A stretch of 64,000 nt of DNA, from NCBI GenBank assembly GCA_965243255.1, contig CBDEUH010000004.1, forward strand, positions 1,790,979 through 1,854,978, in the 5' to 3' direction. The position numbers were made by a program, and so were the translations under genes. Every line of letters starts with the position of its first letter. Position 1 is the first letter of the stretch. Source of the stretch: Dehalococcoidia bacterium (lineage in GTDB: Bacteria > Chloroflexota > Dehalococcoidia > Lucifugimonadales > UBA3495). Below the pieces are notes generated by a model, which ran no database searches, had not been told where the DNA came from, and saw only the letters and a list, made by a program, of their open reading frames with translations. Shown in pieces: positions 20,202-57,468 of the stretch.

Positions 20202-20275
20202 TGGCTGGGGATACAGGATTCGAACCTGTGATACCTGATCCAGAGTCAGGCGTCTTACCACTAGACTAATCCCCA
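20202..20275 (-). tRNA. tRNA-Gln (anticodon CTG)
   Basis: Hand-folded 74-nt cloverleaf: acceptor TGGGGAT/ATCCCCA, D arm GTCT-AGTGGTA-AGAC, anticodon arm CCTGA-CTCTGGA-TCAGG, variable TATC, T arm ACAGG-TTCGAAT-CCTGT, discriminator G, encoded CCA. Confidence 0.9.
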
Positions 20276-45936: not shown

Positions 45937-47023
45937 GGTCGCCGGTAAGGTCGCTGACGCGGGGGGCGACCTCCTCGGCGATGAGGCGGAGACAGTCCAG
46001 CTCCCACTGGTGGTCGTCGGGGTCCTGGGTGATGCAGAGGAGGTGGCCGAAGCCGCCGACCTCGTCGTAGAGCTGGCGGATGCGCTGGGCGCACTCGTCG
46101 GGGTCGCCGACAATCCAGATGTTTTCCATCATGTAGTCGACGGTGAGGTCGTCGTCGCTCATGTTGGGGTCGATCTTGGTGGCCTGAATCAGGCCGGAAC
46201 CCAGGCGGTTAGGCAGCTGGTGCTGGAGGTAGTTGCGGCCCAGGACGGCGTAGGCGCGCTCGCGGGCCTCCTCGGGGGTTTCGGCGACGAAAACGTCGCG
46301 GCCGATGCGCCAGTCGGCGCGGCTGGCTTCCCGGCCGGCTTCGGCGGCGGCGTCCTCAACGGTGGTCCAGTGGTCGCCCAGGTAGTGCGGGGCCAGGTTG
46401 CTGCTGCTCATGGGGATGTAGCCCTCGCGTCCGGCGACGCGGATGCTGCTGCTGCCGATGGAGGTGGCGGCGACGCCGATGGGGGGATGGGGCTGCTGGA
46501 GGGGCTTCATGTGGAGGCCGCGTTCCAGCACGGGGTCGAGCTCGGGCGCTTCGATGTCGAAGAACTCGCCGTGGTACTCGAACTTGCCCTCGGAGGCCCA
46601 GAGGCTGAGGACGATGTCCAGCACCTCGGCGGCGCGGCGGCGGACGTCGTCGCCCTGGCCGGGGTCCATGCCGAAAAGTTGCAGGTCGGTGGGGATGGCC
46701 CGGTGTCCGATGCCCCAGTAGAGTCGGCCGCGGGTGAGGTGGTCGAGCATGGCGATGCGGTGGGCCAGCTCGATGGGGTTGTGGATGGGCAGGAGGGTGA
46801 CGCCGGTGGCGAGGCGGATGTTCTCGGTGAGGGCGGAGGCCTTGGCAATCAGCAGGTCGGGGAAGGGGGCGTTTTCCCAGCGCTCGGTGAGGTGCTCGCC
46901 AATCCAGGCTTCGTGAAAGCCGAGGCGGTCGGCGGCCTGGAGGAGGTCAAGGTCGCGGTCGTAGGAATCGGCGTAGGAACGGTGGGGTGGATGCAAGGGC
47001 ATCATGAACAGGCCGAATTGCAT
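45929..47023 (-). CDS. LLM-class flavin-dependent monooxygenase
   Basis: ATG 47021-47023 with AAAGGAG RBS upstream. MQFGLFMMPLH…GFHEAWIGEH……LLPIHNPIELAHRIAMLDHLTRGRLYWGIG. Convergent 8-nt overlap with the preceding LLM gene. Confidence 0.85.
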   Translation of the reverse strand: MQFGLFMMPLHPPHRSYADSYDRDLDLLQAADRLGFHEAWIGEHLTERWENAPFPDLLIAKASALTENIRLATGVTLLPIHNPIELAHRIAMLDHLTRGRLYWGIGHRAIPTDLQLFGMDPGQGDDVRRRAAEVLDIVLSLWASEGKFEYHGEFFDIEAPELDPVLERGLHMKPLQQPHPPIGVAATSIGSSSIRVAGREGYIPMSSSNLAPHYLGDHWTTVEDAAAEAGREASRADWRIGRDVFVAETPEEARERAYAVLGRNYLQHQLPNRLGSGLIQATKIDPNMSDDDLTVDYMMENIWIVGDPDECAQRIRQLYDEVGGFGHLLCITQDPDDHQWELDCLRLIAEEVAPRVSDLTGDPT

Positions 47024-47159
47024 GGGGGTACTCCTTTGGTCAACAGACAGCGGGGATGGCGATGCGGCAAGGGTAGGCTGGGCAAGCGTTGGTGTCAACG
47101 GCGTCGGACGTCGGAAATTTGATGACACCTGCAACGATGCGCCGGAGGCTGGGGCACGT

Positions 47160-47165
47160 TATAAT
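47160..47165 (+). promoter_or_regulatory. -10 box TATAAT upstream of mod
   Basis: gttataat lies 33 nt upstream of ATG 47199. Confidence 0.35.
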
Positions 47166-47198
47166 TTCACCCGCAACCGAATCCATTGAGGACAGGTC

Positions 47199-50100
47199 AT
47201 GACTACCTCATCTACCGCCACCGAGACGAACCTAGTCAAGTTCCAGAATCTGCTGTGCGAGCTGTTCCAGTTCGACTGCGCCAACCTGGACTTTGGCATC
47301 TACCGCATCATGAACCACAAGCGGGAGGTCATTAGGCAGTTCATTACAGAAAAGCTGCCGGCTGCCGTCGCTAGCGAACTGGATAGCGGCCCTCTTGCCG
47401 AGCAAGCCCGCGCCCAATCCGCCCTGGAGGAAGCCGCTCAGCGCGTTCGCGACAATATCGATCCTGACGCCATTGACGAGTTCGGCAGCCTTAACGAGCA
47501 ATACCACGGTACGCAGGCCGGTCGCGACTACCTTGCGGCCCAAGCCAACGCCGCCGACGGCAGCCGCAGCCGGGAAGCGGTTGAAGCCGAAATTTACAAT
47601 CACCTCTACACCTTCTTCAGCCGCTACTACGAAGAAGGCGACTTCATTTCCAAGCGGCGTTACTCCCGCAACGAACGCTACGCCATCCCCTACAACGGTG
47701 AGGAAGTCTATCTCCACTGGGCCAACAGCGACCAGTATTACGTCAAAACCGACGAGCACTTCCGCAACTACGACTGGACCGCCCCCAACGGCGTTGCCGT
47801 CCGTTTTCGACTGGACAACGCCGACGTGGAACAGAACAACGTCAAAGGGGACGACCGCCTATTCTTGCCGCTTTGCGACAAATCCCAATGGGACGCTGAT
47901 TCGCAGACGATTACGATACCTTTTGAGTTCCGACCACTGAACGGCGCAGAAAAGCAGCAGTACGGTAAAGGGCGACAGAAGCAGCAAGAGAATATCATCG
48001 CTGGCGCCATCACTGAGATTCAGGAAAACCTGCCACAACATCCCGACGCACTGGCAGCACTGACCGGAGAAGAGCGGAGCAACGGTAACGGACCGGTCAG
48101 CCATTTGGAGCACCACCTATGGCGGTACGTCGCTCGCAACAACGCCGACTTCTTCATCCACAAGGATTTGTCCGGCTTCCTGAATCGGGAGCTGGACTTC
48201 TACCTGAAGAACGAGGTGTTAAACTTGGACAACATGACCATCGCCGGGCAGAACATGGCCGACGGCTGGTTTCAAACGCTGCGGCTGGTCAAGGAAGTCG
48301 GCGGCCAAGTCATCGGATTCCTGGCCCAGATTGAAAACTTCCAGAAGACACTGTACGAAAAGCGCAAGTTCGTCACCGAAACGCACTACTGCATCACCAT
48401 GAACGACATTGGTGCCGATTTCTACCACGAAATCATCGCCAACGAAGGGCAGTGGAACGAATGGCAAGAACTGTTCGACGTTGACGGCACCGACCGCAGC
48501 AATGGCTTCTTGGAAGCGCACCCCACGCTAGTAATTGACACCAGACACTTTCGCGCCGACTTCACCAACCGCTTGCTGGAGTCCTTCAAAGATTTGGACA
48601 GCGTAACCGACGGACTGCTGGTGCGTGGCGAAAACTGGCAAGCCTTACGCCTCTTCGAAGAGAAATACGTGGGCAGAATCAGTTGCATCTACATTGATCC
48701 TCCTTATAACACTGAGACGTCAGAAATACTCTACAAAAATGGCTACAAGGACTCTACTTGGATAACCATGATGAAGGATCGTGTGCTTTTCAATAAGAGT
48801 TTCCTTGCTAGTGGAGGCTTCAACGTCGTTACGATCGACCACGTAGAGTTGCACAACTTGGCGATGATACTGGACCAGACCTTTGGTAAGGAGCAGCATG
48901 TAGGAACGGTCTCTATTCTCATCAATCCCAAAGGGCGGCAACACGAAAAATTCTTTTCCAAGTCCACCGAGTACATGATTGTTCACTGCAACGATTTGGG
49001 TGTTGCAAGGTTCAATCAAGTAGCGATCAGTTCAGAGAAAGCCCAAACTTTCACTCTTTCAGATGGGCAGAGGCGATACCGCCTCGACCCCTTCGCGAGG
49101 ATTCGCAACAGCACAACGAGGGAGATAAAGCCTGAAGCCTATTATCCCATTTTTGTGAGTCCCGATTTAAGCGATCTTACGCTTGAAGAGTCCAAGGTGG
49201 GATATACGGCGGTGTATCCCGTTAATGACGAGGGCAAGGAGTTTTCTTGGAAAGTCGGTCCAGAGACCTTTTCCCAACGGTTGAAGCAGGGCGATTATGT
49301 TGCCAAACGCAACGCACAGGGGAAGTTGCAGATTTTCAACAAATACTACGAGAACCAAGTGCATCACAATCTGTGGCACGATAAGAAGTACTACCCGGAG
49401 TTCAATGGAACGCAGCTATTGAAAGCGCTTTTCGGAGAGTCTTGGTTTTCATACCCGAAATCGGTTTATGCCGTCTCCGACACGCTGAAGCTGATGGCTG
49501 AAGAGCATTCGTTTGTCCTCGACTACTTCGCCGGTTCCGGCACTACTGGCCATGCTGCCATCAACCTAAACCGTGAGGATGGCGGCCAACGCAAGTTCAT
49601 CTTGGTGGAAATGGGCGAGTACTTTGACACGGTACTGCTGCCCCGCATCAAGAAAGTCACCTACTCCCCGGAATGGAAAGACGGCACACCCCAGAGGCAA
49701 GCGACCGCCGAGGAAGTCGAAAGATCGCCCCGCATCGTGAAGTACATTCTTCTTGAATCCTACGAGGACGCGCTGGATAGCATCGAGTTTGACCAAGTAG
49801 TCGTAGAAACTCAACAAAGTTTGACAGAGCCGGATGACGAGTACCTGCTCAAGTATATGCTGGGCTGGGAAACCAAGGACAGCGCAACGCTGCTCAACGT
49901 TGGCAAGCTGAGCAGCCCATTCGACTACCGGCTGCGGGCCCACGTTAACGGCGCAAAGCAGGAACGCGAGGTTGACCTGCCGGAGACGTTTAACTACCTG
50001 CTCGGTCTGAAAGTCCGGAGGCGACGCACCTTCGATGACGATGGACGGCGATACCTGGTGTACCGCGGTGAAACCCGCGCCAATCCGGGCCGAGCGGTAG

Positions 50101-50288
50101 CGGTTATCTGGCGCGCTACCGAGGGATGGGCAGAGGAGGACTTCGCCCGCGACCGTGATTTCGTCGCAGAGCACAATCTGGCCGGCGGCGCCGATACGGT
50201 GTACGTCAACGGTGATTCCTGCATCCCCGGCGCCAAGCCCATTGAGCCAATGTTCAAAGAGCGGATGTTTGCCGGCGTAGACGTCTGA
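47199..50288 (+). CDS. mod: Type III-like DNA methyltransferase (Mod; beta-class N6/N4 amino-MTase) with ~480-aa N-terminal and ~270-aa C-terminal extensions
   Basis: 1029 aa. Motif IV CIYIDPPYNT precedes motif I VLDYFAGSGTTGHAAI, the beta-class order found in PF01555-type Mod enzymes. The N-terminal domain (…CANLDFGIYRIMNHKREVI…) is not assignable by eye. Low GC. Confidence 0.85.
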   Translation: MTTSSTATETNLVKFQNLLCELFQFDCANLDFGIYRIMNHKREVIRQFITEKLPAAVASELDSGPLAEQARAQSALEEAAQRVRDNIDPDAIDEFGSLNEQYHGTQAGRDYLAAQANAADGSRSREAVEAEIYNHLYTFFSRYYEEGDFISKRRYSRNERYAIPYNGEEVYLHWANSDQYYVKTDEHFRNYDWTAPNGVAVRFRLDNADVEQNNVKGDDRLFLPLCDKSQWDADSQTITIPFEFRPLNGAEKQQYGKGRQKQQENIIAGAITEIQENLPQHPDALAALTGEERSNGNGPVSHLEHHLWRYVARNNADFFIHKDLSGFLNRELDFYLKNEVLNLDNMTIAGQNMADGWFQTLRLVKEVGGQVIGFLAQIENFQKTLYEKRKFVTETHYCITMNDIGADFYHEIIANEGQWNEWQELFDVDGTDRSNGFLEAHPTLVIDTRHFRADFTNRLLESFKDLDSVTDGLLVRGENWQALRLFEEKYVGRISCIYIDPPYNTETSEILYKNGYKDSTWITMMKDRVLFNKSFLASGGFNVVTIDHVELHNLAMILDQTFGKEQHVGTVSILINPKGRQHEKFFSKSTEYMIVHCNDLGVARFNQVAISSEKAQTFTLSDGQRRYRLDPFARIRNSTTREIKPEAYYPIFVSPDLSDLTLEESKVGYTAVYPVNDEGKEFSWKVGPETFSQRLKQGDYVAKRNAQGKLQIFNKYYENQVHHNLWHDKKYYPEFNGTQLLKALFGESWFSYPKSVYAVSDTLKLMAEEHSFVLDYFAGSGTTGHAAINLNREDGGQRKFILVEMGEYFDTVLLPRIKKVTYSPEWKDGTPQRQATAEEVERSPRIVKYILLESYEDALDSIEFDQVVVETQQSLTEPDDEYLLKYMLGWETKDSATLLNVGKLSSPFDYRLRAHVNGAKQEREVDLPETFNYLLGLKVRRRRTFDDDGRRYLVYRGETRANPGRAVAVIWRATEGWAEEDFARDRDFVAEHNLAGGADTVYVNGDSCIPGAKPIEPMFKERMFAGVDV

Positions 50289-50317
50289 AACCAGCGATTT
50301 ATTGGAGGAGGCGCACT

Positions 50318-53300
50318 ATGCCGCCCCAACAAGGCTATGCCCAACTGGAGCAGAAGCTGGCGTTACTGGCTTGGCTGCACAGCCGATTGGGCTACACAAA
50401 AACGACCAATCTACTGTCGGACCTGAAGCGGGCCGACGAGGGCTTTGACTCGGAAGACCGCAGCCACGTCTACGCCCGGTTGGCGTCTCAGGCCGAGCAG
50501 CTGCAAGGCGTGACGACGGGCGACTTGGAACGCTACGACGACAACATCCGCCAGCACCTGGACGCTATGAACGCTGGCCGGGCGGAAGCTATTACTTTGC
50601 GTTATTTCCAGTACCTGGCGGCGCTGTACACCGAAATTTACCTTGACCGCTACTGCAACCGTCGTGAAACCTTGCTGCGTTCGCTCAACGAATTCGTAAC
50701 CCAGCATAACGACGGCCTAGTCACCAGTGAGCGCTGGGAATCTTTTGTCAAGGCCGACCTGGACAAACTGGCCTTTTGGATGGCTACGGGCAGCGGCAAG
50801 ACCCTGTTACTGCACCTGAACTACCGCCAGTTTCTTCACTACAATCAGGAAACGTTGGACAACATCCTGCTCATCACACCCAACGAAGGACTGACCCAGC
50901 AGCACATTGAGGAATTGCAAGCCTCCAACATTTCGGCGGAACGGTTTGACCTCAATGATAGCGGCATTTTGCTCAATACAACCGGGACCGTAAAGGTTAC
51001 CGAAATTACGAAGCTGGTAATGGAAAAACGCGGCGAAGGCGACAGCGTTCCGGTGGAGGCCTTCGAGGGCAACAACCTGATTTTCGTGGACGAGGGGCAC
51101 AAAGGCTCGGGCGGGGAAGCATGGCGCAGCGTGCGCGACTACTTGGGCGAAACCGGCTTCACCTTTGAATACAGCGCGACTTTCGGGCAAGCACTGGCCG
51201 CAGCCAACAATGACGCACTGCTTGCCGAGTACGGCAAAGCCATTGCCTTTGACTATTCCTACCGTCACTTTTACAACGACGGCTACGGCAAGGATTTCAA
51301 CATACTGAACCTGCAACAGGAAGTGGTAGCGGAACAGACAGATACATTGCTGCTGGCCAATCTGCTATCTTTCTACGAACAGCAGTTGGTCTTCGAGGAT
51401 AAAGAAGACGCGTTCCGCCCTTACAACCTGTCTAGGCCACTGTGGACTTTTATTGGCGGCAGCGTCAACGCCGTATACCGAGAAAGTGGCCAGCCACGCA
51501 GCGACATTCTCACCGTAGTACGATTCCTACACCGCGTGTTGAGCGAACGGCACTGGGCCGTCCCTGCTATCGACCGGCTGCTAAATGGACAGTCGGGACT
51601 GACTGACGAGCAAGGATGGGACATTTTTGCCGACCGGTTTGACTACCTACGCAGCCTCGGTCTCGAAGCGGCTGGGGTATACCGGGACGCGCTGCAAGAG
51701 GTAATGCATACTGATAGCGGCGGCGGACTTGAGCTGCATGACCTACGCGGTAGCGATGGCGAACTGGGACTGAAAGCAGCCGGCGGCAGCGATTATTTCG
51801 GCGTTATCTATATCGGAGACACTCCCGCGTTTAAGCGATTGGCCGACGGCGCTGGCCTCGAAGTCACCGAGGACGCGTTGCATGGGTCCCTGTTCGACCG
51901 GATCAACGAGCAGGATTCAACGGTTGAGGTACTGGCCGGCTCCCGCAAATTCATCGAGGGATGGAACTCCTGGCGCGTGTCCAACATGGGCCTATTGAAC
52001 ATTGGACGTACCGAAGGTTCCCAAATAATCCAGTTGTTCGGCAGGGGCGTACGCCTACGGGGTCGGGATATGTCGCTGAAGCGTAGTTCGGCGTTCTCGG
52101 ACGAGCAGCACCCACACCACATCAAGCTACTCGAAACCCTCAACATCTTCGCTCTTCGCGCCAACTACATGACTCAGTTTAAGGATTATCTGGAAAGCGA
52201 AGGCATTGATACGCAAGGCCCGCTGGAGCTCCCGTTGTTCATCCAGCCCAATCAGGATTTCCTAAACAAGGGATTAGTCATCCCACGCTTGGACGAAGGC
52301 AAGAGTTTCGCCGGCCAGGAAACTGTGCCGTTGCAGTTCGACCCCAATATCCGACCCGTGTCGGTAGTAATGTCGGCGACGGTTCAACAAATCAGTAGCG
52401 GGCAAGATGGCGTCGTTGAAACCGGCGCCAGCGCCGGGACAGAGAGAACAATTCCCTCAAAAAGCCTGGACCTGGTTGATTGGAGCGAAGTCTATCTCGC
52501 GCTGCTGGAGTACAAGAAGACCAAGGGGTTCAGCAACTTGCTGATACTGCAGGGAGCCTTGCGTGACATCCTGCAAGCCACACCAACGACATACCGTTTG
52601 GAAGCTGAGCAATCCGTGGTTGAACCTAAGAGTTACAGTGACCGGCGACGGCTACAGGAAGCGGTAACCAGCATCTTGCGACGATATGCTGACGCGCTCT
52701 ACCGACGGCGACAAGCGCGTTGGGAATCGAACAACCTGACCTATCGCCGGCTTGATGACTCCGATGACAACTTCCGGTTCAACATCGCCGAAAACAGTGG
52801 CACTGGGCAGTACATCGTCAGAGTTCCTCGCGACCAACCGGACTTGGCGCAGGAAATTGAGCGTCTCGTCGCGGACTGCAATTCCCTCTACCAACAGGAA
52901 CAAGGAGATTTGCCGCGCATCCATTTTGACCGACACCTGTACCAGCCTCTCCTGGTAGAAGCCGACGGTGTAACCTCGTCGCCGGCCGGTTTGCAAGAGA
53001 GCGAGCTCAAATTCGTAGTCGACCTGCGCGACTACTGCTCAAACTCGTCATATGCTCCGACAACGGGGACAGAGCTGTTTTTGCTGCGCAACCTGACGCG
53101 TGGCAAAGGCGTTGGCTTTTTTGAGAGCAGCGGTTTCTACCCCGATTTCATCCTTTGGGTGAAATCGAGCGAACAACAACGCATCGTGTTCGTAGAACCC
53201 CACGGGATGCTGAACGCGAAGGCATACTTTCACGACGACAAAGCCCAACTCCACGAACGCCTGCCGGAACTAGCGCAGCAGATTGCTACCCGCTCAGGCG

Positions 53301-53470
53301 ACCTGGACGTACAACTGGACTCCTTCATCGTCTCGGCCACCCCATACGATGACCTGCAGGAGCGTTACGGTGAAGGCGATTGGAACAAAGCGGATTTCGC
53401 GGCTAAGCACATCCTATTTCAAGAACGCAGCGACACGTACGATTACGTGGCCCAAATCCTCCGGGGCTGA
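50318..53470 (+). CDS. res: Type III-like restriction subunit (Res): SF2 DExH helicase with C-terminal PD-(D/E)xK-like region
   Basis: 1050 aa with GGAGGAGG RBS upstream. Walker A FWMATGSGKTLL, motif II LIFVDEGHKGSG, later …SRKFIEGWNSWRVSNM… (motif VI-like). C-terminal FYPDFILWV…IVFVEPHG is nuclease-like. Starts 29 nt after mod. Confidence 0.8.
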   Translation: MPPQQGYAQLEQKLALLAWLHSRLGYTKTTNLLSDLKRADEGFDSEDRSHVYARLASQAEQLQGVTTGDLERYDDNIRQHLDAMNAGRAEAITLRYFQYLAALYTEIYLDRYCNRRETLLRSLNEFVTQHNDGLVTSERWESFVKADLDKLAFWMATGSGKTLLLHLNYRQFLHYNQETLDNILLITPNEGLTQQHIEELQASNISAERFDLNDSGILLNTTGTVKVTEITKLVMEKRGEGDSVPVEAFEGNNLIFVDEGHKGSGGEAWRSVRDYLGETGFTFEYSATFGQALAAANNDALLAEYGKAIAFDYSYRHFYNDGYGKDFNILNLQQEVVAEQTDTLLLANLLSFYEQQLVFEDKEDAFRPYNLSRPLWTFIGGSVNAVYRESGQPRSDILTVVRFLHRVLSERHWAVPAIDRLLNGQSGLTDEQGWDIFADRFDYLRSLGLEAAGVYRDALQEVMHTDSGGGLELHDLRGSDGELGLKAAGGSDYFGVIYIGDTPAFKRLADGAGLEVTEDALHGSLFDRINEQDSTVEVLAGSRKFIEGWNSWRVSNMGLLNIGRTEGSQIIQLFGRGVRLRGRDMSLKRSSAFSDEQHPHHIKLLETLNIFALRANYMTQFKDYLESEGIDTQGPLELPLFIQPNQDFLNKGLVIPRLDEGKSFAGQETVPLQFDPNIRPVSVVMSATVQQISSGQDGVVETGASAGTERTIPSKSLDLVDWSEVYLALLEYKKTKGFSNLLILQGALRDILQATPTTYRLEAEQSVVEPKSYSDRRRLQEAVTSILRRYADALYRRRQARWESNNLTYRRLDDSDDNFRFNIAENSGTGQYIVRVPRDQPDLAQEIERLVADCNSLYQQEQGDLPRIHFDRHLYQPLLVEADGVTSSPAGLQESELKFVVDLRDYCSNSSYAPTTGTELFLLRNLTRGKGVGFFESSGFYPDFILWVKSSEQQRIVFVEPHGMLNAKAYFHDDKAQLHERLPELAQQIATRSGDLDVQLDSFIVSATPYDDLQERYGEGDWNKADFAAKHILFQERSDTYDYVAQILRG

Positions 53471-53503
53471 AAAGCGGCGTACGCAGTCTCTTCGTTCACC
53501 CGG

Positions 53504-53509
53504 TATAAT
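53504..53509 (+). promoter_or_regulatory. -10 box TATAAT upstream of sppA
   Basis: cggtataat lies 41 nt upstream of ATG 53551. Confidence 0.35.
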
Positions 53510-53550
53510 CCAAACTAACCACTGGTTGCCCACCCTACAGGTAACTGAAT

Positions 53551-54381
53551 ATGCTTTTTTTCAAACGCAGGCCCAGCATTGCCGTTGTTGAGATGCACGG
53601 CACGATTGGCACGGCGATTCGGGAACCGGACTATACTCGCTTGTTTGAGCGGGTGCGGGAAAACCGGAAGGTGGGGGCGCTGGTGCTGGACATTGACTCG
53701 CCCGGGGGTTCGGCTACGGCCAGCGACATCCTGTACGAGAACGTGCGGCGGGTGGCCGAGCGCAAGCCGGTGGTGGCCTACGTGCGCGGACTGGGCGCGT
53801 CGGGCGGTTACTACATTGCCTGCGGCGCCAGCCAGATCATGGCGTCCCGCGCCGCGCTGGTGGGTTCCATCGGGGTGATTTACCTGCGGCCCATCCTGCA
53901 GCAGCTTTTCGGGAAGATGGGCGTTGAGTTCTCGGTGTTCAAGGGCGGGCGGCTGAAGGATATGTCGGGCTTCTGGCGGATGCCCACGGACGAGGAGTCG
54001 GAGAAGTTCCAGGGTCTGATCAGCGAGATGTACGACCTGTTCGTGTCGGTGGTGTCGGAGAGCCGCAAGCTGACGGACGAGCAGACGCGGGAGCTGGCCA
54101 CGGGGGAGCTGTACACGGCGGCGCAGGCCCGGGAGTTGGGTTTGATCGATCGCACCGGCGGGATTGACGACGCCATCGCGGAGGCGATGCGGCTGAGCGG
54201 GGCGCGGCGGAGGATTCGCCATTACCGTCCGAAGCGTGCGTTCATGGCGCGGCTGGGGGTGCCGGGACGGGCCGGGGGTTCCTATCTGTCGGCGCTGGAG
54301 GGGATGGCCGGGATGATGGGCGGCGGGGTTTACTTCATCGAGCCGGGGATGATGGGCGGGTTCGTGTCGAGGGATCGTTAG
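53551..54381 (+). CDS. sppA: Signal peptide peptidase SppA (36K type, S49)
   Basis: 276 aa: …ALVLDIDSPGGSATASD…, …LGASGGYYIACGA……GSIGV… give the Ser/Lys dyad context. Confidence 0.85.
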   Translation: MLFFKRRPSIAVVEMHGTIGTAIREPDYTRLFERVRENRKVGALVLDIDSPGGSATASDILYENVRRVAERKPVVAYVRGLGASGGYYIACGASQIMASRAALVGSIGVIYLRPILQQLFGKMGVEFSVFKGGRLKDMSGFWRMPTDEESEKFQGLISEMYDLFVSVVSESRKLTDEQTRELATGELYTAAQARELGLIDRTGGIDDAIAEAMRLSGARRRIRHYRPKRAFMARLGVPGRAGGSYLSALEGMAGMMGGGVYFIEPGMMGGFVSRDR

Positions 54382-55278: not shown

Positions 55279-56016
55279 ATGATTTCTCGAACCAACCTTG
55301 CCAGAGCGGCGGCCAACAAGTACCGGGGCGCCGCCATCCTGACCGTGCCCGCCGTGCTGCTGTTCCTGGTGGCCGGCTCGGTGGCGTGGGCGGTGAACGA
55401 CCCCGGGCTGTACCGCAACGGATTTGAGCGGTACGACACGGCGGCGCGCTCCGGCATCACCGACGCCGACCTGATCGTCATCGGGGCCGAACTGCGCCGG
55501 TACTTCAACACCTCCGTCGAGCCGCTGTCGGTGCGGGCGCCGATTTACGGGGTCGAGCAGGACGTGTTCAACGGGCGGGAGGTGGCGCACATGTACGACG
55601 TGAAGCGGTTGGTGCGGGGGACGTACTGGGTAGCCGTCGGGTCGGCGCTGTGGATCCTGGCGACGCTGGCGGGCGGATTTGCGTTGCGGCGGCGGGAGTA
55701 CGTCGGCTCGGCGGCGCGGCTGGCGCTGTGGGGCGGCGGCGTAACGCTGGCGGCGGTGGTTGGGGTCGGGCTGGCGTCGGTGGTGGCCTTCGAGGAGCTG
55801 TTCTTGCTGTTTCACCAGCTGAGCTTCGCCAACGACCTGTGGATCCTGGACCCGCGGACCGACTACCTGCTGATCATGTTTCCGGGGCCGTTCTGGTTCG
55901 ACGCGACGATGCGGGTGGCGGTGACGGCGGTGCTGGGGGCGGTGCTACTGCTGTCCAGCGGGGTTGCCGTGTTATGCTATGAACGTTGGCAATCGAAAAG
56001 GCAGAGCGGAGATTGA
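55279..56016 (+). CDS. TIGR01906/DUF1461-family integral membrane protein
   Basis: 245 aa, ~4 TM segments, with conserved …FNGREVAHMYDVK… and …FHQLSFANDLWILDPRTDYLLIMFP..FW…. Confidence 0.7.
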   Translation: MISRTNLARAAANKYRGAAILTVPAVLLFLVAGSVAWAVNDPGLYRNGFERYDTAARSGITDADLIVIGAELRRYFNTSVEPLSVRAPIYGVEQDVFNGREVAHMYDVKRLVRGTYWVAVGSALWILATLAGGFALRRREYVGSAARLALWGGGVTLAAVVGVGLASVVAFEELFLLFHQLSFANDLWILDPRTDYLLIMFPGPFWFDATMRVAVTAVLGAVLLLSSGVAVLCYERWQSKRQSGD

Positions 56017-56017
56017 G

Positions 56018-57070
56018 ATGACGCGGCAGCTCTCCTTACCCGGCCCCTTTGACTTGGAGCTCAGCCTGACGATGGGGCAGGCGTTTCGCTGGCGTTCGCT
56101 GGGCGACGGCTGGTTTTCGGGTGTGCTGGGGGAGAACCTGGTACACATTCGGCAGACGGAGGACGGGGTTGAGTACCGGGTTGGGGGACCGGAGGGGGAG
56201 CGGGAGGCTGGTGATGCTGATGATGAACTGCTGCGCCGCTACTTCCGGGCGGACGACGACGTTGGGGCGATTTACGCGGACATCAGCGGGCGCGACCCCA
56301 AGCTGGCCACGATCATCGAGGAGTTCCCGGGGTTGCGCATCCTGCGGCAGGATCCGTGGGAGTGCACGGTGGCCTACCTATGCTCGGCGAACAACAACGT
56401 CAAGCGTATCGGCGCGATTGTGGAAAGGATAGCGTGTGAGTTCGGCCGCACGTTGGCGTTGGGCCCCGACGTGAGCGCCGTGTTTCCGACGCCGGATCAG
56501 ATGCTTGCGGCCCGTGACCCCGTTGCGAAGCTTCACAAGATGCAATTGGGATTGTATCGAGACAAGAACATCGTCAAGGCGGCGCACCGCTTTGCGAACG
56601 GGGAATTGGATCCGGACCAGCTCAGGAGCGCGTCGTACCAGGATGTGCTGCCGGTGTTGATGGAGGGGGCGCGTAATAAGAGCAAGGCGAATGGCATCGG
56701 GCCCAAAGTTGCGGATTGCATCGCGTTGTTTTCGCTGGACCAACTGGATGCGTTCCCAGTGGACCTGTGGGTATGGCGGGCCATCACTGAGGCATATCCG
56801 GAATGGGGATTCCAGGAAAATACAAAGCCCAGCGATAAAAACCTCCGCGAGGTGTCTGAACAAGCCCGGCAGGTGTTCGGCGAATACGCCGGTTACGCCA
56901 ATCAGTACCTGTTCTACTGGCGGCGGCGATATGGCGAAGAACCCTTGCCATTTGCCACACGTTGGAGAGGGAAACTACGCATCACGCCGCCGGCTGGCCG
57001 AGAGATTAATGACCAATATCTTGACGACCTGCGCTACGAGTACCTGAAAGCCAAATACCTGTCATGTTGA
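56018..57070 (+). CDS. ogg: 8-oxoguanine DNA glycosylase/AP lyase (OGG1 type) with C-terminal extension
   Basis: ATG 56018. OGG_N pattern (LELSLTMGQAFRW…), …DPWECTVAYLCSANNNVKRI…, HhH-GPD with GIGPKVADCIALFSLD…FPVDLWVWR (catalytic Lys and Asp context). ~45 extra residues follow the fold. Confidence 0.8.
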   Translation: MTRQLSLPGPFDLELSLTMGQAFRWRSLGDGWFSGVLGENLVHIRQTEDGVEYRVGGPEGEREAGDADDELLRRYFRADDDVGAIYADISGRDPKLATIIEEFPGLRILRQDPWECTVAYLCSANNNVKRIGAIVERIACEFGRTLALGPDVSAVFPTPDQMLAARDPVAKLHKMQLGLYRDKNIVKAAHRFANGELDPDQLRSASYQDVLPVLMEGARNKSKANGIGPKVADCIALFSLDQLDAFPVDLWVWRAITEAYPEWGFQENTKPSDKNLREVSEQARQVFGEYAGYANQYLFYWRRRYGEEPLPFATRWRGKLRITPPAGREINDQYLDDLRYEYLKAKYLSC

Positions 57071-57468
57071 TTGACAACAACGTGCTGCTCGATCTTGGAC
57101 TCAACCGGAAGCCGGATTCCTTGATAACTGAGGAACTGCTCAATCGCATTGGGCAGTCGGCAACGACTGCGTTTGTATCTTGGCACTCCGTCGCTACGTG
57201 CCACTACATCATGGAGCGCGACATAGACCGGGCAACGGCCCGCGCTTTCGTTGAGCAACTAACCGCTTTACTTACCGTTGCACCGGTCGGCCACCAATCC
57301 CTTCTTTATGCCCTGACCCTGCCGATGAGCGACTTTGAGGACGCGATGCAGGTTGCCGCTGCCCGAGCCGCCGGGGCGCAGCACATCGTTACCCGCGACA
57401 TCGGGGACTTTGGCAACTCGCCCATTCGTGCGGTTACGCCGGAGGAGGCGTTGCGGGAGCTGTTTTAG
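57064..57468 (+). CDS. PIN-domain protein (VapC-like), no separate antitoxin ORF
   Basis: 134 aa: MLIDNNVLLDL…, …MSDFEDAMQVAAA…HIVTRDIGDF. The ATG overlaps the ogg stop by 7 nt. Confidence 0.75.
   Translation: MLIDNNVLLDLGLNRKPDSLITEELLNRIGQSATTAFVSWHSVATCHYIMERDIDRATARAFVEQLTALLTVAPVGHQSLLYALTLPMSDFEDAMQVAAARAAGAQHIVTRDIGDFGNSPIRAVTPEEALRELF

Follow-up and report, generated by a model that had tools for sequence, protein, structure and literature searches.

Eco86II and BspHIV belong to the 'group 3' Type III systems of restriction-modification (R-M) in Murray et al. (2021), which produce N4-methylcytosine (m4C), and both carry an extra gene for a superfamily 2 (SF2) ATPase on the 5′ side of mod (PMC8259958). 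Eco86II, from Escherichia coli NCTC86, was characterised in that study, where EcoF9792I is listed with the same motif: M.Eco86II alone suffices for m4C methylation at GAGCC, and, in assays that contained ATP, the partially purified enzyme cut plasmids carrying head-to-head sites some 25 bp away on the 3′ side of the site (PMC8259958). The additional gene, of the SNF2 type, is dispensable for methylation, its product is not found in the active cutting fraction, and its association with mod and res was reported for more than 500 genomes (PMC8259958). Here we analyse a mod-res pair at positions 47199 to 53470 of a 64,000-bp stretch of DNA from a Dehalococcoidia bacterium (GCA_965243255.1, contig CBDEUH010000004.1, positions 1,790,979 to 1,854,978; hereafter the window). 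We propose, with a probability of about 85%, that horizontal transfer brought in this unit and that its two genes form a Type III R-M system of the long-Mod family, for which Eco86II and BspHIV are the type examples. Homology places the pair in a two-gene branch of this known family, in which the nuclease site reads ExH, and not in a new kind of system; the family as a whole is, as far as its sequences tell, a divergent, non-textbook branch of the Type III systems, known from the literature from 2021 onwards.

Both genes lie on the + strand, as do all features given below by their window coordinates. mod (47199..50288) codes for a putative Type III methyltransferase subunit of 1029 aa and res (50318..53470) for a 1050-aa SF2 helicase subunit with a predicted nuclease. 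The two are intact open reading frames (ORFs) in the same orientation, each preceded by a ribosome-binding site in a co-transcribable layout, and the 29-nt spacer between them (50289..50317) contains a Shine-Dalgarno sequence, GGAGGAGG, at 50304-50311 and no cargo gene. The ORF calls with their translations, the GC profile and the neighbouring genes agree with the original prediction, which had described two co-oriented genes 29 nt apart amid high-GC genes. That prediction had also raised the possibility of a variant other than a Type III system, which we do not retain, since PADLOC's Type III profiles cover the proteins nearly end to end and both are homologous over their full length to the Eco86II pair. 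MTase_III (PDLC03646) matched Mod over aa 18-1012 (E = 3.7e-178) and REase_III (PDLC03654) matched Res with its best stretch at aa 303-1037 (E = 1.3e-153), while BLASTP aligned Mod residues 19-1025 with M.EcoF9792I/M.Eco86II (33% identity) and Res residues 41-1036 with R.EcoF9792I/R.Eco86II (35% identity). PADLOC, whose use had been proposed with the original prediction, already calls the pair Type III, and DefenseFinder and REBASE very probably do likewise. A literature search by accession gave no match.

The same two profiles match end to end (1173 and 1651 bits) a homologous pair of 1046 and 1120 aa on IncF plasmids of E. coli and Klebsiella, where it follows a helix-turn-helix (HTH) gene and an SNF2 gene whose product is recognised by PADLOC as DrmD (E = 2.5e-196). 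A diverged chromosomal copy in E. coli F9792 codes, in this order, for an SNF2 protein of 963 aa, a Mod of 1040 aa and a Res of 1126 aa, and is found in NCTC86 at 99.9% nucleotide identity. We take the vector of the Eco86II clone to be about 2.7 kb. With a vector of that size, the clone size of 5.9 kb (PMC8259958) fits a mod gene of about 3.2 kb; since NCTC86 has a single Type III system (PMC8259958), its copy of this locus is Eco86II. The window pair shares with Eco86II end-to-end homology, N- and C-terminal Mod modules around a central variable target-recognition domain (TRD), the order DPPY…FxGxG, an SF2 helicase followed by a predicted C-terminal PD-type nuclease, the mod-then-res order, tight spacing and the same PADLOC profiles. 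It differs in lacking an HTH gene upstream of mod and in its nuclease motif, EPHG in place of the DPKG of Eco86II. The two TRDs are unrelated, so the specificity of the window pair should differ from that of Eco86II.

Mod is of the β class, as the original prediction had read from its motifs, with DPPY (aa 500-503) preceding FAGSG (aa 777-781) and the TRD between them. Both motifs on which that reading was based, motif IV, CIYIDPPYNT (aa 496-505, 48684..48713), and the S-adenosylmethionine-binding motif I, DYFAGSGTTG (aa 775-784, 49521..49550), are present. Across 117 homologues D500, P501, D775, F777, G779, S780, G781 and T782 do not vary, and P502 and Y503 hardly do. DPPY as motif IV serves both m4C and N6-methyladenine (m6A) chemistries. 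The target-recognition region (aa ~540-750, 48816..49448) is hypervariable among 120 homologues, with an identity to the query of 0.10-0.31 against 0.5-0.9 elsewhere; conservation is high over the first ~470-480 aa and the last 220 aa, and Res is more conserved than Mod. A hypervariable TRD between conserved flanks, together with a Res that varies less than its Mod, is the pattern of an R-M system, to judge from these alignments.

The N-terminal (aa 1-470, 47199..48608) and C-terminal (aa 810-1029, 49626..50285; conservation 0.61-0.77) modules of Mod are specific to the family. The original prediction had been unable to assign either of them, and the Pfam and PDB sequence searches that it proposed leave both without a domain match: Pfam covers only aa 494-808 (N6_N4_Mtase), lenient Pfam scans (E up to 10) of five sub-regions and of 52 N-terminal modules taken singly gave nothing consistent, and PDB sequence searches, run with single proteins and with four profiles, picked up the Mod core only and gave no significant match to either module. 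NCBIfam scans of the pair returned sub-threshold matches only. The C-terminal region is about 220 aa long, however, not the ~270 aa first put forward. Since the alignment with Eco86II runs from end to end, the Mod and Res regions called unassigned are common to a characterised Type III enzyme. Full-length homologues of a characterised enzyme and matches of the extra regions to known domains had been named in the original prediction as observations that would speak against it; the homologues were found, whereas the extra regions match no annotated domain. A second Type III Mod family also holds parts of these regions, because another MTase_III profile, PDLC03638 (816 positions), shares Mod 308-942.

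A search with the N-terminal module returned 2,421 clusters at 50% identity, 921 of them at E ≤ 1e-30; in the 150 best matches the module is always N-terminal, mostly in proteins of about 1000 aa. One homologue of the module contains a helix-hairpin-helix domain inside it (HHH_5, E = 5e-12), for which the window Mod has no such match. Conservation reaches 0.79-0.92 over aa 121-210 (…RYAIPYNGEEVYLHWANSDQYYVKT…) and peaks at 0.92 in the block aa 151-180, and within aa 145-186 (47631-47756; …SKRRYSRNERYAIPYNGEEVYLHWANSDQYYVKTDEH…) D148, E169 and K183 are invariant. The AlphaFold2 (AF2) model of Mod has a predicted local distance difference test (pLDDT) score of 75.8, and its N-terminal module runs through helical, then β, then helical segments. 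The most conserved stretch, aa 145-186, is the worst modelled (pLDDT below 50) and has no match among known families; it may form an interface that takes up its fold only within the complex, or it may be an active site of a kind not yet recognised. Since the N- and C-terminal modules are conserved alongside Res while the TRD varies, we infer that they dock Res or dimerise Mod.

The pair resembles EcoP1I, EcoP15I and Mbo45V in its two subunits, in having mod before res, and in a Res whose helicase is N-terminal and whose predicted nuclease is C-terminal. The Mod core matches the Mod subunits of these three enzymes in sequence (E = 1e-19 to 1e-53), and a Foldseek search of the PDB with the Mod model is dominated by the methyltransferase core (E = 1e-14 to 1e-18; top matches 6k0w, 4zcf and 7dsu). 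hhalign pairs Mod 469-809 with EcoP1I Mod 92-468 (E = 1.6e-41) and aligns nothing outside: the N- and C-terminal regions of the two proteins do not align, and the window Mod has about 370 extra N-terminal residues, with DPPY at residue 500 against ~124 in the 646-aa EcoP1I Mod. The earlier claim that both subunits are oversized stands for Mod (1029 against 646 aa); Res exceeds the 970 aa of its EcoP1I counterpart by only about 80 aa.

The four Res motifs quoted in the original prediction, ATGSGKT (aa 156-162), VDEGH (aa 257-261), YPDFILWV (aa 941-948) and VFVEPHG (aa 957-963), are all present. The RecA1 lobe, from the Walker A motif ATGSGKT to DEGH (aa 258-261; 50783..51100), falls in the only Pfam match of the protein, ResIII (aa 138-289, E = 2.9e-13). 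In 114 homologues A156, T157, G158, G160, K161 and T162 are invariant, as are D258, E259, G260 and H261, and likewise Q572, F574, G575, G577 and R579 in QLFGRGVRL (aa 572-580, 52031..52057), the probable helicase motif VI. The AF2 model of Res (pLDDT 71) gave weak Foldseek matches to SF2 enzymes, namely HsdR of EcoR124I, RIG-I-like helicases and Snf2 enzymes.

At the C-terminus, a predicted PD-(D/E)xK-type nuclease core, P942-D943 … E960-P961-H962-G963 (53141..53206), reads ExH, and alignment to family members with DPKG confirms that a histidine stands where the lysine is expected, as had been noted originally. P942 is found in all 120 close homologues, and D943 and H962 in 119, the odd sequence being gapped there; position 960 is E in 104 and D in 15. 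All 70 environmental loci scored have (E/D)PHG and a Priestia plasmid copy has EPHG, while DPKG occupies the aligned position in Eco86II and in the enterobacterial, Aeromonas, Hymenobacter and Natronosalvus homologues. On this alignment the change from lysine to histidine is a branch-wide substitution, and the PD, the acidic residue, the histidine and the glycine show next to no variation across the branch, an argument for an ExH site that is functional and under selection. K949 was considered as a relocated catalytic lysine and rejected, for its hairpin geometry in the AF2 model is unsuitable and the DPKG branch does not conserve it. Both the DPHG/EPHG and the DPKG branches conserve a second lysine, K975, where the next helix begins.

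The pair is a horizontally acquired insertion of about 6.5 kb, since two close relatives, represented by contigs L090 and L091, keep the neighbouring genes without it, and a drop in GC marks the insert. Over 47000-53500 the GC content is 0.48-0.62 (55% overall in this low-GC part), and to either side it is 0.63-0.73. Housekeeping genes flank the pair and code for an M24 peptidase, YceI, a luciferase-like monooxygenase, an SppA/S49 peptidase, MazG and OGG, and the gene 5′ of mod is a divergent luciferase-like monooxygenase. L090 and L091 have the order of the window, M24 peptidase, YceI, two luciferase-like genes, SppA (91-93% identical) and MazG, which in L090 was also read through OGG and PIN; both lack mod and res, and a spacer of 119-446 nt stands in place of the ~6.5 kb. 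Their nucleotide homology to the window (87-94%) runs up to 47071 in L090 and 47040 in L091, in or at the edge of the left junction and mod upstream region (47041..47198), and restarts at 53550, just after the right junction (53471..53549). No integrase is found among the genes flanking mod and res, and the sole tRNA gene of the window, for tRNA-Gln at 20202, is 27 kb from the pair, in keeping with the original statement that neither lies nearby.

Each junction carries a TATAAT box and the 8-mer TTCACCCG: at the left, TATAAT (47160-47165) and TTCACCCG (47166-47173) are followed by a GAGGA ribosome-binding site before the mod ATG; at the right, TTCACCCG (53495-53502) and TATAAT (53504-53509) precede the sppA ATG at 53551. 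Terminal repeats of a mobile element were considered and rejected: the junctions share no repeat longer than the 8-mer (plus TATAAT), the 8-mer occurs four times in the window against 2.9 expected, and its presence in two short stretches is near chance level. The TATAAT boxes were spotted by eye only, and a sigma-70 promoter scan gave no match. Phase variation was likewise rejected, as tandem repeats are absent.

The sample that contains the island-free relative L091, ERZ24894577, also holds a different genome of 3.87 Mb (L001), in which a Res 83% identical to that of the window lies in another genomic context, between queG-like and thiG genes. Their presence in one sample is consistent with recent lateral spread within one community. 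Downstream in the window (55964-57468), an OGG-like glycosylase ORF (OGG_N and HhH-GPD) overlaps by 7 nt with the PIN-domain gene that comes after it (57064-57468). GC dips locally to 0.57-0.58 here, and no antitoxin-like gene was seen; since the relative L090 keeps the same pairing, this pair is not an insertion.

Several points weigh against the assignment to the Type III systems. Identity to the Eco86II pair is only about one third (33-35%), and the window lacks the third, SNF2/DrmD-like gene that the characterised relatives carry. Res has no PDB sequence match by single-protein or profile search, hhalign relates it to EcoP1I Res over no more than 38 columns around DExH..SAT (9% probability), and the AF2 models of the two proteins are only moderate (pLDDT 71-76). 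The canonical nuclease lysine is replaced by histidine throughout the branch of the window, and we know of no characterised PD-(D/E)xK enzyme with ExH.

This substitution underlies the alternative that survives best, although we consider it improbable: the pair would methylate, and Res would be an inactive nuclease, a nickase or a replication-blocking translocase, so that the unit would act as an epigenetic or selfish module or as a non-cleaving defence. In its favour, histidine takes the place of lysine in 119 of the 120 close homologues and throughout the 70 environmental loci, where Eco86II has DPKG, and the passages on lysine and histidine in a survey of PD-(D/E)xK proteins do not include ExH among the active-site variations (PMC3424549). 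Yet the PD, acidic, His and Gly residues remain invariant across phyla down to about 44% Res identity, as expected of an active site in use and not of one in decay; the conserved K975 lies on the helix to which, according to the same passages of the survey, a migrated lysine is a documented variant (PMC3424549); and relatives carry defence cargo (HepT/MNT, Fic, OLD, GmrSD) between mod and res, as active R-M loci do. It is just as doubtful that the two-gene ExH branch differs in mechanism from the Eco86II-type enzymes; if it does, it may use a histidine-based or relocated-lysine nuclease, or sensing or catalysis by the Mod N-terminal module may replace the missing ATPase.

A considerably less likely alternative is that the pair is a remnant or part of a larger system akin to class 1 DISARM or ARMADA, its SNF2 partner having been lost or lying elsewhere and two genes being insufficient. 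These systems, which combine a DrmD/ArmA SNF2 protein with an adenine methyltransferase and a DUF1998 helicase, also place a methyltransferase beside large helicases, and in the characterised sister branch the DrmD-like SNF2 gene stands 5′ of mod, the association found in more than 500 genomes (PMC8259958). However, a tblastn search of the 64-kb window and, in 80 environmental loci, of the ~6 kb upstream of mod detected no homologue of SNF2, so the two-gene form is the stable state of the branch to which the window belongs. None of DUF1998, DrmA, DrmB or DrmMI is among the Pfam and PADLOC matches listed for Mod and Res, the window has no DrmA, DrmB, DUF1998, PLD or SNF2 gene, and Res is not a YprA/DUF1998 helicase as ArmC of ARMADA is. 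DISARM and ARMADA, considered on account of the DrmD-like neighbour in enterobacteria, were rejected for the lack here of DUF1998, DrmA and SNF2, and even in Eco86II the SNF2 gene is dispensable for methylation and its product is missing from the fraction that cuts (PMC8259958). That low GC and long ORFs coincide here by chance, or that both genes are decaying, functionless pseudogenes, is hardly credible, as the ORFs are full length in comparison with thousands of homologues and have intact catalytic residues and proper ribosome-binding sites.

Type I R-M loci have the layout hsdM/S … hsdR and code for an HsdS specificity subunit, a γ-class HsdM and an HsdR with an N-terminal nuclease. The window pair recalls them in that HsdR of EcoR124I, though a weak match (Foldseek E ~3e-4), comes closest to the fold of Res and in that its relatives carry defence cargo between the methylase and nuclease genes. 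It differs in having no HsdS, a β-class Mod with an internal TRD and a predicted C-terminal nuclease, and the HsdR NCBIfam model scores only 24 bits on Res against a cutoff of 284.

Full-length homologues of the pair number in the thousands (54-75% identity for Mod, 63-84% for Res), with both genes on the same contigs, and a scan of one genome per species placed relatives in at least 580 species. These include Dehalococcoidia, Anaerolineae, Latescibacterota, Poribacteria, Gemmatimonadota and Gamma- and Deltaproteobacteria, as well as Planctomycetota, Verrucomicrobiota, Bacteroidota, Spirochaetia and Bacillota; plasmid-borne homologues occur in haloarchaea, Hymenobacter, Aeromonas, Priestia and enterobacteria. 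mod precedes res on one strand in 79 of 82 related loci, which come from many phyla, the contigs of the remaining three ending too early.

In about one third of the related loci (L010-L079), cargo of 0.5-5 kb lies between mod and res, for example at L033:4034-4704, L036:9099-11643, L019:9021-10899, L034:3256-5039, L046:9063-10154 and L070:4541-7498. It includes MNT/HepT toxin-antitoxin pairs, Fic proteins, OLD-family AAA_15 with TOPRIM, GmrSD_N/DUF262, RhuM and AAA_14 with DUF4143, together with a weak, sub-threshold DndB-like match. An Aeromonas plasmid carries at this place (L086:11177-12954) an AAA ATPase and a DUF4276 protein, presumably a PARIS-like system. In the long-Mod family, the mod-res junction seems to be a hotspot where defence genes become embedded, as they do in Type I loci.

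The DPKG branch often has a DrmD-like SNF2 gene 5′ of mod, frequently accompanied by a small HTH gene (regions concerned: L083:5989-8949, L086:5068-7977, L089:1589-4480 and L085:1-2421). This arrangement is seen in the enterobacterial and Aeromonas copies, and in Hymenobacter the SNF2 gene stands a few genes further upstream. No SNF2 gene is next to the Natronosalvus copy, which has DPKG, and a helicase of another kind lies upstream of the Priestia plasmid copy, which has EPHG. An Eco86II-type mod occurs in 167 of 5,426 complete E. coli genomes. In most of these copies only the gene ends match, at 97% identity, the middle being replaced. This swapping of the middle of mod between strains suggests that many TRD alleles, and hence many specificities, circulate in E. 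coli at a single chromosomal locus.

The steps by which the system would work are drawn by homology from Eco86II and the EcoP15I paradigm and are set on what was observed here, that is, the anatomy of the pair, its family, the variable region, the conservation of motifs and the insertion. Type III systems characteristically methylate one strand of a short, asymmetric target and, with ATP, cleave about 25-27 bp away from it when given two unmodified targets in inverse orientation, behaviour shown for Eco86II (PMC8259958). In the window pair, a Mod dimer would use its central variable region to read such a site and would methylate one strand at an exocyclic amine, giving m4C, as in both characterised family members, or possibly m6A. 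Res would bind Mod through the conserved N- and C-terminal modules, and its SF2 ATPase would drive movement along the DNA from an unmodified site. When two inversely oriented unmodified sites communicate, Res would cut near the site (~25 bp 3′ in Eco86II); incoming phage or plasmid DNA would thereby be destroyed and the host protected. By this analogy we infer the formation of the complex, the modified base, the specificity, cleavage by the ExH site and the roles of the extra Mod modules.

For the annotation of this genome, the analysis yields an ordinary Type III R-M island, probably not a new defence system, which spares follow-up effort. The long-Mod family to which it would belong is very large, counting some 2,400 clusters at the 50% identity level and relatives in at least 580 species from many bacterial phyla, and reaches haloarchaeal plasmids; its mod-res junction appears to be a recurrent landing site for other defence genes. 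Neither the 470-aa Mod module nor the Res of the family has a solved structure or a domain model. Most environmental members belong to the two-gene branch with the invariant ExH nuclease variant, and we know of no member of that branch that has been tested biochemically. The methylome or the structure of one member of the ExH branch would fill a real, though incremental, gap.

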